Source: an uncultured Prevotellaceae bacterium (GTDB lineage: Bacteria > Bacteroidota > Bacteroidia > Bacteroidales > Bacteroidaceae). From it: 64,000 nt of DNA. A program made the translations under genes and the position numbers. Below the pieces are notes generated by a model. The model did no database searches. It was not told the origin of the DNA and saw only the letters and a list, made by a program, of their open reading frames with translations. The stretch is from contig CACXQL010000001.1 in assembly GCA_902769805.1 (NCBI GenBank), positions 7,526 through 71,525 of the forward strand. The letters run 5' to 3'. How positions within the stretch are numbered: position 1 is the first letter of the stretch; each line of letters begins with the position of its first letter. This document shows positions 35,872 to 63,075 of the stretch, piece by piece.

Positions 35872-36387
35872 TTATATCTTGACCTTAATAACAACTTTTT
35901 TGACTTCTTCGGGGGCGTCGATGCAGAGTTGAGGCATGTGAGCGTCGTGTGGGAAGAAAAGGGCGAAGGAGGTCAAAGGTCGAAGGTCAAAGGTCAAAGG
36001 TCGAAGGTCTAAGGTCAAAGGACGAAGGTCAAAAGTCAAAGGTCGAAGGTCGGAGGTCGAAGGACGAAGGTTTGATTCGTAGAAGGCGGCATCGGTATCA
36101 GGGTTGTAGGGTTGGGTTTCCTGCAGTTCGTCCACGGGGAGACAAGCGATTTTCTCGGTGCCCTTGAGGAGGTACTGGATGTCGATGTTCTTCTGATGGG
36201 CTTCGTAGCCATGCTCGTTGATTGTCTTTGTCGTGTATTCTGACACAATGGCTTTGACTCGAGGATTGATCTCGTAGGTGCCGGGGGCTGTGTCGGGGGA
36301 CATTTCCTTGAGGTACTTCAGACCAGCATAGATGTCGTCAGAGAGACCTTTGTACAGTTCTATATTTTTAATCTTATCGTAAACCAT
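35872..36387 (-). CDS. YhcH/YjgK/YiaL family protein with in-frame heptamer-array insertion
   Basis: EAHQKNIDIQY, G-x-E, FALFFPHDAHMP, VKKVVIKV; (LRPLTFD)n insert from 35969-36073. Confidence 0.9.
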   Translation of the reverse strand: MVYDKIKNIELYKGLSDDIYAGLKYLKEMSPDTAPGTYEINPRVKAIVSEYTTKTINEHGYEAHQKNIDIQYLLKGTEKIACLPVDELQETQPYNPDTDAAFYESNLRPSTSDLRPLTFDLRPLTLDLRPLTFDLRPLTSFALFFPHDAHMPQLCIDAPEEVKKVVIKVKI

Positions 36388-36393
36388 TTAAAT

Positions 36394-36522
36394 AAGGTCT
36401 AAGGTCTAAGGACTAAGGTCTAAGGACGACCTTTGACTTTTGACTTTTGACTTTTGACCTTAGTCTTTTGACTTTTGACCTTTGACTTTTGACCTTTGTC
36501 CTTAGGCCTTAGTCCTTTGACC
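36394..36522. repeat. Intergenic paired inverted heptamer arrays (AAGGTCT arm, then TGACTTT/TGACCTT arm)
   Basis: Read directly from the sequence. Confidence 0.9.
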
Positions 36523-36523
36523 A

Positions 36524-37363
36524 TTAGACAGAAGGACCTGTGTAGGTGGCTTTGACCTGTTCGTAGCTCTCGAGGGTACCGATGTCGTAGCGCTTGCCGG
36601 GCATCTCGTAGGTATAGACAGGAGTCTGGGTGGAGAGCCAGGCGATGAAGCTGCCGGGGGCATCGATGCCACAACCGCTGGCGATGCCCTTCTTAATCAG
36701 GCGAGCATCTTCACGGGTGTAGTAGTAGAAGGCAGGGATGCACCAGTGACTCTTGGGATTCGCGGGTTTCTCCTCCATGGAGAGGATACGACCATCTGTG
36801 TCTATCTCTGCCACACCTGTCTTATGGAGTCGTGCCTCGTCAGCCTCGTAGTAGCGCATGACACACGTTGCGTTCTTCTCTTTCGCATAGCGGATAAAGC
36901 CCTCCAAACTGAAGTCCAGCAGGTTGTCACCTGCCATGACGAGGAGGTCGTCGTCGAGTTTCAATTTATCAATGGCGAAGTCGATATCCTTTACCGCCCC
37001 AAGGCGAGTGGCGTTCGACGATGTGCCATCGTCGAGGACGACGATGTCTAAGGACGAAGGACGAAGGTCTGAGGACGAAGGTCCAAGGTCTAAGGTCGAA
37101 GGACTAAGGTCTAAGGTCGAAGGACGAAGACTGCTTTTGGCCTTTGACTTTTGACTTTTGACCTTTGACCATTCATTGAAAATGGGGGCGAACTTATGGT
37201 TGCTGATGACGATGTATTCGTTGATCAAGCCGGTCTTGTTCATATCGTCGATGAGCCAGTCAAGGATGGGCTTGCCTGCCACCTCCAGTAATGGCTTCGG
37301 GAAGTTTTCGGTCAATGGGTAAAGTCTTGTAGCATACCCAGCTGCTAGGATCAAACATTTCAT
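36524..37363 (-). CDS. Sugar-1-phosphate nucleotidyltransferase with in-frame heptamer-array insertion
   Basis: ILAAGYATRLYPLT-x-x-x-PKPLL, AGDN, EEKP, DIGT; insert at 37047-37171. Confidence 0.9.
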   Translation of the reverse strand: MKCLILAAGYATRLYPLTENFPKPLLEVAGKPILDWLIDDMNKTGLINEYIVISNHKFAPIFNEWSKVKSQKSKAKSSLRPSTLDLSPSTLDLGPSSSDLRPSSLDIVVLDDGTSSNATRLGAVKDIDFAIDKLKLDDDLLVMAGDNLLDFSLEGFIRYAKEKNATCVMRYYEADEARLHKTGVAEIDTDGRILSMEEKPANPKSHWCIPAFYYYTREDARLIKKGIASGCGIDAPGSFIAWLSTQTPVYTYEMPGKRYDIGTLESYEQVKATYTGPSV

Positions 37364-37395
37364 GTTTTATTCGGTTATAGGTTAGAGGTTAGCGG

Positions 37396-60700: not shown

Positions 60701-60832
60701 AGTCATGAAAATGAAAGCTTGCTTATTGGATAATTTTCATACACTCGACAAAAGAAAATCATTCTTTTTGTTCTCGTTTATTTAAAAATTTAGTACCTTT
60801 GCACCCGAAAAGAGAGTGGTAGTATCACAAAA

Positions 60833-60907
60833 AGGAGCATAGCTCAGTTGGTTTAGAGCGCTTCAGTCACATTGAAGAGGTCTTGGGTTCGAGTCCCAAT
60901 GTTCCTA
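60833..60907 (+). tRNA. tRNA-Val (CAC)
   Basis: AGGAGCA/TGTTCCT acceptor, CTTCA-GTCACAT-TGAAG anticodon arm, TTGGG-TTCGAGT-CCCAA T arm; TACCTTTG box at 60794-60801. Confidence 0.92.
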
Positions 60908-60951
60908 CAAAGAGTAGCATCTCTCAAAGAAATAAGGAGGCAGTTGCCTCC

Positions 60952-61731
60952 TTATTTCTTTGATTTCCTGCGTTTATCTTTCTTTGTTTCCCTAATGCCA
61001 TATTTCAGGAAGCGGAACTCAGCCTTTGCCTTTGCCAACTGCTCCATGAATTCAGGAGAGGTATGCAAGCGGATGACGGCAGCACTGGCAGCGAGGCGTC
61101 CTGCATCCACGTCGCTCTGCCAATGAGCGCCCACGATGACACGGCTGTCACCGTACATCATGCCTCGTGCCAGAATTGTATCGGTAGCCTCGGGATTGAT
61201 CTCCATCATCAACAGGGCAAGGCTCCAGCCGCGGATGGTGTGTCCTGAGGGATAGGAGCCATTGGTACGGAGACCTTCCTCTTCCCAAGAGCTCAGCATA
61301 TGCTCGTTCATCACCATGAAGGGACGTTTGCGCTGATAGAAACGCTTGGCTTTACTACCTGCCTTATCACAGGTCGTGACACCCCGTACGAGAAATTTGT
61401 AAATCTCTGGAGTCTCCTCCTTGGATATCCGCATACCAAAAGCACCGCTATACTCATTGATGGTCGTATCAAGTTGCCAGATAGCATCACGCTTGGCAAT
61501 AGCTGCACGTACGGAATCCAGACGCTGGGTCTTGCCCCACATATAGCGCATAATATCATGGACAAACGCCTCACTGGTTGAGTCAGGAGGTGCCGGAAGC
61601 CATTTCAACAGGTCAGGAAGCTCACTTGTATGGAAAAAAGGTTTATACTCCTCTGTATCCTGTGCATTTACAGGCATACCGCAAAAAAGAATCAGGGTGG
61701 CAAAAAGCCATAATGTTTTCTTCACTCTCAT
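60952..61731 (-). CDS. PAP2 family (class A) acid phosphatase, secreted
   Basis: K-x6-[22 protein letters not shown]; signal peptide from MRVKK. Confidence 0.9.
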
Positions 61732-61824
61732 ACTACTTTCTTTGATATTGTTTGCAAAGTTACGATTTTTTTTTGTCATATCAGTATTTTTCATTATTTT
61801 TGCACAAAATATCATACAAACAAC

Positions 61825-63075
61825 ATGGATATTACAGAACGATTCCTAAACTACACCCAATTCGACACACAATCGGCTGAGGACAGCGAGAGTGTGCCCA
61901 GTACCTCCAAACAACTGATTTTCGCGGAATACTTAAAGAAAGAACTCGAGAAAGAAGGCCTCGACGAGGTGGAACTGGACGAGAAAGGCTATCTCTATGC
62001 CACGCTGAAGGCGAATATCAAGGATAAGGTACCTACCATCGGTTTCATCTCCCATTACGACACCTCTCCCGACTGTTCGGGTGCGAATATCAAACCGCAG
62101 ATTATCCGCAACTACGATGGGGAGGAGATTCTGTTAGGGAGGCAGGAGACAGGAGACAGGAGTCAGGAGAGAATCATGTCGCCGAAGAAATTCCCTGAGC
62201 TATTACAGCACGTGGGTGAAGACCTGATAGTGACAGACGGGACGACATTATTGGGTGCTGACGACAAGGCAGGCATTGCCGAGATCATACAGGCGATGGT
62301 GTATTTGCAGGAACACAAGGACATCAAGCATGGTAAGATCCGTATCGCCTTCAATCCCGATGAAGAGATTGGCATGGGTGCCCATCACTTCGACGTGGAG
62401 AAGTTCGGGTGCGAATGGGCCTACACGATGGATGGCAGTGATGTCGGAGAACTGGAGTTTGAGAACTTCAATGCCGCCTCAGCCAAAATCCATTTCAAGG
62501 GTGTCAATGTCCATCCGGGCTATGCCAAAGGAAAGATGGTGAATGCCAACCTGCTGGCAATGGAGTTTGCCGCCATGCTGCCCCCTGACGAGACCCCCGA
62601 GACGACAGAAGGCTATCAAGGTTTCTATCATTTGACAAATGTAGAAGGCAATGTAGAGAAAGCCTCCCTGTCCTATATCATCCGTGACCACGACCGTGAT
62701 CATTTTGAGGACCGCAAGCGATTCATCGAAAACTGTGTGGAGGCGATGAATGAGAAATACGGAGAAGGTACTGTCGCTGCAAATGTGAAGGATCAGTATT
62801 ATAATATGAAGGAGAAGATAGAGCCCGATGCGATGCATGTCATTGACCTCGTGTTACGTGCCATGCAGGAAACGGGTGTCGCACCAAAGGTACGTCCTAT
62901 CCGTGGAGGTACTGACGGAGCCCAGCTCTCTTTCAAGGGACTCCCCTGCCCTAACATCTTCGCAGGTGGCATTAACTTCCACGGGCCTTATGAATTCGTC
63001 CCCATCCAGTCGATGGAGAAAGCCATGCAGGTCATCGTCAAAATCTGTGAACTGGTTGGCAGTTATAATGCCTAA
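61825..63075 (+). CDS. pepT: Peptidase T
   Basis: [47 protein letters not shown] heptamer insert at ~62138-62171. Confidence 0.96.

Follow-up and report, generated by a model that had tools for sequence, protein, structure and literature searches.

Tandem heptanucleotide repeats are over-represented in bacteria and unexplained there, as summarised in the available parts of PMC4679880 and PMC4692102. The arrays described in these parts (units TAACTGA and GGGAATC, respectively) lie at gene junctions, some of them inverted or within open reading frames (ORFs), and no source is named for them; local slippage has been proposed as the origin of such repeats (Mrazek 2007, as summarised in the same part of PMC4679880). 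In Coxiella, the available part of PMC4990558 describes an intervening sequence (IVS) of the 23S rRNA that holds an S23p ORF, a strain-dependent number of tandem heptamers next to the ORF, and a terminal inverted stem. In-frame fusions of MITEs (miniature inverted-repeat transposable elements) and Rickettsia palindromic elements (RPEs), including fusions with predicted signal peptides, are treated in the available part of a review (PMC2229807), and PF05635 has been linked to Avd of diversity-generating retroelements (available part of PMC10053308). Here we examine a window of 64,000 nucleotides (the whole stretch of DNA that was analysed), which is part of contig C1 of an uncultured Prevotellaceae genome (G000; a 2.67-Mb assembly, 85% complete), and the short-unit repeat arrays that lie in it both between genes and, in frame, within mfd, dnaX, pyrC and other genes. 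These arrays are probably copies of the arms of four-helix-bundle (4HB) cassettes, made mostly in cis by short-patch overwrite and then subjected to slippage and selection. We know of no function assigned to the 23S-IVS protein family, to which the 4HB genes belong.

The feature is a variation on heptamer repeats, IVS-type cassettes and RPE-like inserts, and has all the defining features of none. With the heptanucleotide arrays named LSSR (long simple sequence repeats) or STRR (short tandemly repeated repetitive sequences) it shares the over-representation of dispersed 7-nt tandem arrays (220 against 0 in shuffled DNA) and, as far as the available parts of those papers go, the dominance of period 7, about four units per array, inverted pairs, positions beside stop and start codons, a sporadic distribution that includes Bacteroidetes and some copies in ORFs. 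In the same parts, however, each genome has one unit and in-ORF copies lie mainly at protein ends or in hypothetical proteins, whereas here many families, linked to 4HB clades, have internal copies in about 99 ORFs, including those of Mfd, DnaX and PyrC; the term 'helix bundle' occurs 0 times in PMC4679880. An origin by local slippage alone was rejected, since unrelated genes of two species share one hairpin module and the units follow 4HB clades; slippage acts after an array has arrived, in whole-unit length steps. The ORF-bearing 23S IVS, in the available description, have the same protein family (S23p/PF05635), a terminal inverted stem and tandem heptamers beside the ORF. Here, in contrast, cassettes lie between protein genes, units of 7, 8 or 9 bases are clade-specific, and gene-less arms occupy more than 300 sites, many in frame, while the available part of PMC4990558 describes no spread outside rRNA.

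The likeness to RPEs and MITEs, from the partial text of the review, is that of selfish hairpin DNA tolerated in frame in conserved proteins. RPEs are there elements of 105-146 bp with one consensus, unlike the variable-length tandem-unit arms found here, which often replace host bases; identity with MITEs or RPEs was rejected, as many units, variable lengths and mostly solo arms were found instead of one consensus with terminal inverted repeats. Identity with repetitive extragenic palindromes and their tyrosine transposases (REP/RAYT) was also rejected, the 85% complete G000 having no match to PF01797, the Y1 transposase partner. Diversity-generating retroelements, as partly described, have a related four-helix-bundle protein and a templated overwrite of a target stretch, but no reverse transcriptase was found in G000 and the variation is not adenine-specific. 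Only these separate parts (heptamer repeats, IVS cassettes, in-frame MITEs, Avd likeness) were found in print; no paper linking 4HB genes to dispersed or in-frame arrays was found in a search that most subscription journals and supplements lie outside.

Repeat arrays and four-helix-bundle cassettes

The sequencing runs that contain window DNA are mostly bovine gut metagenomes, and the host is described as a rumen Prevotella; six RNA runs are among those listed, with shares of only 0.09-0.16. A periodicity scan (periods 4-15) of G000 found 220 arrays of period 7, 49 of period 8 and 66 of period 9, with at most 9 of any other period; triplet-shuffled DNA gave 0 of period 7 and 1 of period 9. Of these 335 arrays, 165 fall within ORF calls and 117 lie deep inside 99 ORFs, whose products have no common function. 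The commonest length is 4-5 units (191 of 333), and a unit has an almost invariant core plus one or two free positions. There are many unit families of variable length, mostly as solo arms, with no single conserved full-length consensus. Comparison with a sister genome (G041) covered 2.18 Mb of its approximately 2.6 Mb (mean identity 85.5% over 315 fragments); 204 of 311 G000 array blocks were anchored on both sides in G041, which holds a same-family array at 93 of them.

These arrays are closely associated with 4HB genes (TIGR02436). G000 has seven matches to this family, one of them in the window, and arrays stand beside six. Across the genus an array lies within 200 nt of 40/48 4HB loci, compared with 11/181 control windows, and 24 of the 48 loci have arms on both sides; the C29 and C51 cassettes are inverted, and some others have direct or single arms. 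In a tree of 127 4HB proteins, 114 of them with a readable arm, the unit of the nearest neighbour was within one mismatch for 69/114 (shuffled mean 3.9, maximum 14) and had the same period for 103/114 (55 when shuffled), and 23 of 53 close pairs in different gene contexts have a common unit. Members with the Suffix domain (TIGR04258) carry 9-mers, or 8-mers in one subgroup. For the majority of the abundant G000 families a matching cassette exists in G000 or in a relative. The abundance of one heptamer family correlates with the number of 4HB genes across 250 members of the genus (rho 0.56, which, like the tree test, is overstated because orthologous loci and kin are not independent), and at least 10 matches of the tested family occur in 63 of 175 genomes with a 4HB gene versus 3 of 75 without.

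Cassette content at fixed gene junctions differs between the sister genomes. Cassettes are present or absent between G000 and G041 at C51, R3 and R51, and at C29/R23 one is swapped for a 71%-identical cassette with other arms. The 3' arm of the R3 cassette replaces the native signal-peptide core of the next gene; overall the 3' arm falls in the next ORF in 8 of 95 cassettes, four of them hydrophobic. The empty C57 site of G000 (C57:19220-19600), where G041 has a broken 4HB cassette, keeps a 5' arm; the gene after this site in G000 has about 47 bases missing just after its start, by deletion or assembly error. Flanks are at least 97% identical between the two genomes at 4/6 shared cassette sites versus 6.6% of 3116 windows, a hint that cassettes may travel on recombination tracts. 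All seven G000 4HB loci are flanked by protein-coding or intergenic DNA, so none lies in an rRNA gene, and the in-gene arrays themselves carry no ORF. One 4HB protein of the relative G045 (locus L193) matches PDB 2GSC (E 1e-10) and 2RLD; the solved relatives have five chains per entry.

Seeding appears to be local. At 22/46 loci a distal array within approximately 1.5 kb matches the arm of the locus itself (2.3 when shuffled), and 10 of these 22 lie in frame in neighbouring genes; matches to the own arm occurred at 18/35, compared with 6/115 for another cassette of the same genome. The family that dominates the window, AAGGTC, has 208 three-unit matches in G000 and 3 in the compared G041 sequence, and C1 holds 20 of its 50 arrays. 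The junction of a galactokinase-family gene and a nucleotidyltransferase gene has 13/48 AAGGTC arrays within 25 kb, versus 0.9 expected, odds that are flattered because the region was picked by the finding. In G045, the 4HB gene at L193 has AAGGTC-family arms and stands at the junction homologous to 37364-37395 of the window, between homologues of 37396-38568 and 36524-37363; the two genes that follow contain cognate hairpins in frame. The hairpin at Mfd site 2 of the window is approximately the same module as that in the G045 nucleotidyltransferase, an unrelated gene. Same-family arrays also cluster away from C1 (65 pairs versus 35.9 shuffled; 44 versus 22 in G041). The preliminary description of this DNA held that an active process seeds arrays widely: the 4HB cassettes with repeat arms are a candidate source for this process, and the seeding is local and family-specific and not even.

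Frame, overwriting and position in proteins

Lengths of arrays within genes are strongly filtered. Differences from G041 are divisible by three at 49/52 sites in genes and at 36/102 outside, and the three non-triplet differences in genes span start regions. When sites are classed by G041 coding status alone, which avoids circularity, 66/70 are intact. Same-family 7-mer arrays differ from G041 by 0, 21 or 42 bases in genes (14 sites) and often by 7 or 14 bases outside (8 of 36 sites). A unit variant that forms TAA makes up 86/170 of purine-arm units outside genes versus 4/155 inside, and in 98 coding arrays the two off-frame readings of the sense strand contain 55 stop triplets, versus 323 in the three frames of the other strand. 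Because in-gene length differences keep multiples of three, the in-gene arrays are very likely translated, and on this selection evidence their removal from mRNA appears unlikely. Flags for split genes were rejected at C41 (an over-called start in G041), C54 (an anchor artefact, with both ORFs open) and C83 (a frameshift approximately 100 nt or more from the array); C6, where two secreted-protein genes in G000 are one ORF in G041, is ambiguous between fusion and fission. The C83 frameshift (C83:5700-5770) lies away from a 9-mer array in a gene that is a single 459-aa ORF in G041.

Many array events overwrite 15-35 bases of native sequence or of another array. A median of 31 bases lies opposite a median 34-base array at the 19 coding sites with another family in G041, and a median of 15 native bases at the 26 coding sites without an array there, these medians being rough since array ends and diverged flanks blur. 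Exact length is kept in 8/21 in-gene family swaps, and at a few sites, such as C24:31430, the array was added cleanly to a seed one unit long. No target-site duplication or TA ends were seen by eye at 20 junctions, most of which replace bases and whose ends are blurred by 15% divergence. The earlier claim that only frame-preserving insertions survive is thus right as to filtering for frame and against stops, but many of the events are overwrites and not insertions.

Outside genes, 123/163 arrays lie between co-directional genes, most beginning at the stop codon, and 23/107 back-to-back pairs of promoter-like boxes, mostly 43-45 bases apart, enclose an array; we take the boxes to match the Bacteroidetes -7 promoter consensus. 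In 19/20 inverted pairs the purine-rich arm precedes the other, an order that is identical on both strands, and a strand-polarity test for inverted pairs was therefore dropped. As the families also fill these spacers, the arrays are a DNA-level phenomenon and not a protein motif, as first proposed. Three further palindromic repeat families of 70-80 nt (13, 36 and 6 matches in G000) often abut heptamer arms, for example at C20:61111-61185, C2:165317-165395 and C1:96825-96903, the last of these in frame.

Alignment to orthologs bore out the expectation that the inserts are lineage-specific: segments at Mfd loops, in MetH, PyrC and others vary between relatives and are not conserved protein sequence. 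Compared with 29 broad relatives and 61 distinct closer Mfd proteins, sites 1-5 of the G000 Mfd measure 49, 57, 52, 45 and 28 aa versus medians of 20, 23, 18, 25 and 13, and site 6 is shorter than the relatives' median (25 versus 42 aa). The segments are longer in the metallophosphoesterase (26 versus 16 aa, 144 orthologs), the MetH domain (53 versus 21 aa, 99 orthologs), PyrC (37 versus 30 aa, 139 orthologs) and PepT (31 versus 23 aa, only 2 orthologs); DnaX shows no gain (46 versus 49 aa, 108 orthologs). YhcH and the nucleotidyltransferase had no ortholog among the relatives' loci aligned (0 matches for YhcH). In many relatives the same Mfd loops hold other heptamer families, 9-mers or unrelated palindromes; palindromic elements read as PSKSPLLRGD, PSPSEGG or GQSP overwrite them in L041, L052, L066, L078, L099, L117, L141 and L189. 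A gap at approximately 365-385 of Mfd was rejected as the scar of an array, the residues being missing also in a clade of relatives.

An AlphaFold2 model of Mfd residues 1-618 (43 sequences, mean predicted local distance difference test score, pLDDT, 74.9) places the five modelled inserts between conserved elements. The pLDDT falls below 50 at 70-72, 76-81, 165-183, 302-338, 464-468, 470-482 and 570-574, and the model extends helices into parts of the QRSKVEG runs. Placement in tolerant loops, as had been supposed, thus agrees with the Mfd model, but loops are not the only sites, as hydrophobic families form signal-peptide-like N-terminal cores. Of the arrays in the first 25 codons 15/21 are hydrophobic, versus 6/112 of the internal ones, and most such N-termini read as signal peptides when judged by eye, without a predictor. 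One secreted protein, presumably BatD-like, has three N-termini across seven genomes, in which the upstream arm family and the hydrophobic core change together. A signal-peptide module may have been copied between unrelated genes or, more simply, both halves may be decayed arms. At C2:118120-120800 (also L346:9494-12157; L448-L452) two genes, which we take to be BatD and BatE, are separate in G000 and G041 and form one frame of 850-900 aa in most genus members searched; where the frame is split, an 8-mer hairpin provides the stop and restart as well as a new N-terminus that resembles a signal peptide.

Arrays along the window

The left 35.8 kb of the window is a 37% GC (guanine plus cytosine) cluster that looks like a polysaccharide locus, and the in-gene arrays under study lie in the 47%-GC right part. 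Tandem Repeats Finder recovered each of the arrays first reported in at least eight intact ORFs at its given place, and all eight frames are open through them. Profile matches uphold the gene names, at family level for YhcH, nucleotidyltransferase and metallophosphoesterase, as the C-terminal part for MetH, and above cut-off for Mfd, dihydroorotase, DnaX and PepT. Run contigs were admitted as evidence only as long bridging pieces (likeness 85); joints and depths, dominated by repeats of other organisms, were excluded. For the arrays at 46710 (X5, X8, X11), 52542 (X5, X7, X8), 53848 (X7) and 55359-55412 (X5, X7) there are bridging contigs in runs of three studies, which makes an assembly artefact, named at the outset as a possible refutation, very unlikely as their cause; the long mfd arrays are bridged by no contig among the pieces listed. 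Some bridging contigs differ from the window at 6-18 other positions. The X8 and X11 pieces differ at 6-13 other letters and so come from other strains; X5 and X7 possibly represent the source samples.

Around the galactokinase-family/nucleotidyltransferase junction the arrays lie on the minus strand. A solo AAGGTC-family arm, read on its pyrimidine strand, occupies 35970..36071 in frame in the YhcH-family gene 35872-36387 (residues 106-140, LRPLTFD) and forms no hairpin alone (z 0.2-0.9). A gene-less inverted pair (36393..36522, z about -6) fills the spacer between the nucleotidyltransferase and YhcH genes, and a further pair (37046..37170) lies in frame in the nucleotidyltransferase gene 36524-37363 (residues 65-106); in G045, a hairpin of the same family lies in that loop of the homologue adjoining the cognate cassette. 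The junction itself (37364-37395, listed as 37364..37401) is filled by a GGTTAGA array at 37373-37401. Two large gene-less hairpins follow, also on the minus strand. That at 42687..42827 (z about -7) has two AAGGTC-family arms, which enclose a 35-nt loop element with copies elsewhere. The largest, with 21 + 18 units and the same loop element (45314..45625, z -7 to -9.8), lies between upxY and an export gene. By strand, inverted pairs of the window fold better than shuffles, with z from -2 to -10. The 33-35-nt loop element fills both large hairpins (42716-42750, 45462-45494) and also stands alone at C13:29295, C4:53860, C17:28925 and C3:38435 of G000, with 6 copies in G000 and 6 in the compared G041 sequence. 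No Rfam family matched the window loop elements, and contigs of other organisms in four metagenomes end at the element. At L035:591-963 a 4HB cassette with other arms stands just upstream of the homologue of window gene 41584-42672; the corresponding position in G000 is taken by the empty hairpin 42687-42827.

The six mfd blocks of the preliminary description were found at residues 49-87, 145-187, 299-345, 455-488, 566-585 and 1069-1081, all on the minus strand. Site 1 (49693..49807) has an AAGGTC-family arm and a short AATTGA arm, site 2 (49393..49520) is an in-frame hairpin whose long arm is perfect at period 21, and site 3 (48920..49057) joins an AAGGTC-family arm to an AATTGA-family arm (QRSKVEG + NFQFSIF). 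Site 4 (48490..48588) combines 9-mer (SENSEH) and 7-mer (NYQLSTI) arrays, site 5 (48198..48256) is a 9-mer array (QSSQSS) at a beta-hairpin turn, and site 6 (46710..46748) is a 9-mer array (EFSEYSENSEYSE); relatives have here a longer segment, either native or of another repeat. An AATTGA-family array without assigned strand (46187..46221) stands behind the mfd stop, upstream of upxY.

Other minus-strand arrays are a 7-mer array (52542..52571, PLTTNRSTLT) in the metallophosphoesterase gene 52263-53252, a short AATTGA-family array just before its start (53254..53270), which has one extra unit in X8 and X11, and in-frame hairpins in the MetH-activation-domain gene 53290-54165 (53848..53955, residues 71-106) and in pyrC 54162-55505 (55359..55412, residues 32-49), where relatives have 9-mer or other 7-mer arrays at the loop. 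On the plus strand are a 9-mer array in the DnaX linker (58429..58477, residues 423-439) and a GGAGACA array in pepT (62138..62170, RQETGDRSQ). Without assigned strand, an AATTGA-family array (57140..57172) lies upstream of dnaX between back-to-back boxes that we take to be promoter-like, and an AAGGTC arm with an ACTTTAA arm (59009..59096) between the convergent dnaX and asnA.

The 4HB gene of the window (24401-24952, TIGR02436 match 24437-24760, start codon uncertain) belongs to a filled cassette of another repeat family (24299..24952, minus strand), with CCATGAA-type heptamers downstream (24299-24415) and degenerate arms upstream. Further 9-mer and 7-mer arrays occur in left-part spacers (6703-6727, 8220-8243, 8814-8837, 33159-33279, 41056-41085). 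Longer tandem repeats of another kind, with 33-nt and 92-nt units, lie at 38962-39095, 39408-39630 and 51656-51769, the 33-mer at two places, and many contigs of other organisms pile up at them. Two tRNA genes, the only Rfam matches in the window, are on the plus strand at 60497-60570 and 60833-60907.

Proposed source of the arrays and its consequences

In the proposed origin from 4HB cassettes, the starting point is the 4HB (TIGR02436) genes, which are flanked by arrays of 7-, 8- or 9-base units, in many cases as an inverted pair whose first arm is purine-rich. Each protein clade has its own unit, and at fixed gene junctions sister genomes gain, lose or exchange cassettes. Arms or empty arm-loop-arm hairpins would also be copied independently of the gene, with a preference for cis, in patches of approximately 30 bases that take the place of the earlier sequence. 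The chemistry that we propose is DNA-level patch recombination primed by short homology, with a 4HB oligomer binding its cognate arm; the 4HB protein may be the driver of copying. The length differences show that arrays are then resized by whole-unit slippage, in steps of 7 bases outside genes and 21 inside, and the strong filtering suggests that selection retains copies at stop/start spacers, promoter spacers, surface loops (stop-free and in frame) and, for hydrophobic families, signal-peptide cores. The inserts would be mostly neutral passengers. More tentatively, the sequence data raise the possibility that 4HB proteins are the sequence-specific engine of a transposase-free selfish element, in which each clade recognises its own unit and arm copies are written over nearby DNA.

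Several findings weigh against an origin from 4HB cassettes. Some distal matches are arms of neighbouring cassettes (L258, L433). None of the seven TIGR02436 matches in the 85% complete G000 has AAGGTC arms, and because G000 lacks a cognate cassette the source of the AAGGTC burst is deduced from a relative whose flanking genes are approximately 40-47% identical. A 25-kb halo was found at only 2/11 resident cassettes tested in G000 and G041 (one orthologous pair) and at none of the other nine. No cognate 4HB gene was found in G000 and relatives for the GGAGACA and CTCAGAG families, 112/175 genomes with 4HB have fewer than 10 matches of the one family tested, and three array-rich genomes have no 4HB match. 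The kinship that inflates the tree test belongs here too, as does the overwriting of the same Mfd loops by unrelated palindromic elements, which means that loop tolerance is general. Neither a Y1 transposase (PF01797) nor a reverse transcriptase (PF00078, RVT_1) was matched in G000.

Causation could run the other way, with slippage and ectopic gene conversion spreading arrays, 4HB cassettes landing or persisting at arm-like arrays, and clustering reflecting short-range conversion from any seed. Whole-unit length changes, same-family clustering even off C1 (65 pairs versus 35.9; 44 versus 22 in G041), the nine of 11 resident cassettes without a halo, the empty site C24:31430 with its unit-long seed, and near-identical flanks at 4/6 shared cassette sites, which fit plain homologous transfer, all accord with this. 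It leaves unexplained, however, the restriction to periods 7-9 and a limited unit set, the match of units to the 4HB protein tree, the purine-arm-first order (19/20 pairs) and the near-absence of the tested family in 4HB-free genomes (3/75), and we consider it unlikely. Adaptive regulation, in which each 4HB protein is a ring-shaped RNA-binding regulator that reads approximately 4-5 units and the arrays are selected binding sites, is improbable: sites swap family or vanish between sister genomes, target genes are functionally unrelated and the main family persists without its 4HB gene. This is so despite the 123/163 non-coding arrays between co-directional genes, most from the stop codon, the modal length of 4-5 units, the hairpins that enclose start codons, the five chains of solved relatives and the similar role proposed for TAACTGA repeats in the available part of PMC4679880.

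The resemblance of PF05635 to Avd (PMC10053308, in part), the like-for-like overwriting and the ability of arms to form stems as RNA would suit a retrohoming-like process, in which an Avd-like 4HB protein and a reverse transcriptase acting in trans write copies of arm RNA over target DNA in the manner of Avd in diversity-generating retroelements. With RVT_1 not found in the 85% complete G000 and variable unit positions that are not adenine-specific, we regard it as highly improbable. It is scarcely credible that the arrays undergo removal or bypass in RNA, or that faulty assembly created them. Inverted pairs do fold stably, RNase III cuts the 23S IVS stem (PMC4990558, available part) and the long mfd arrays are unbridged among the contigs listed; against this, frame is kept at 66/70 sites with no clear break at an array, steps in genes are of 21 nt, TAA-forming units number 4/155 in genes versus 86/170 outside, hydrophobic arrays fill signal-peptide positions, and contigs of three studies bridge arrays.

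This genome ties heptamer repeats to the 23S-IVS protein family by a unit-to-clade code, a local cognate halo and a recent single-family burst centred on the junction at which a relative has the matching cassette. Within one genus the loops of core enzymes (Mfd, DnaX, PyrC) have been rewritten repeatedly, and signal-peptide-like N-termini have been replaced by repeat arms. Such inserts also have practical consequences: false starts and low-complexity segments mislead annotation, and assemblies are broken. If 4HB proteins are indeed the engine, this would name a source for bacterial heptamer repeats and provide a standing route to new protein loops and to ready-made signal peptides, since the purine-first 8-mer hairpin would read as a basic n-region followed by a hydrophobic core.

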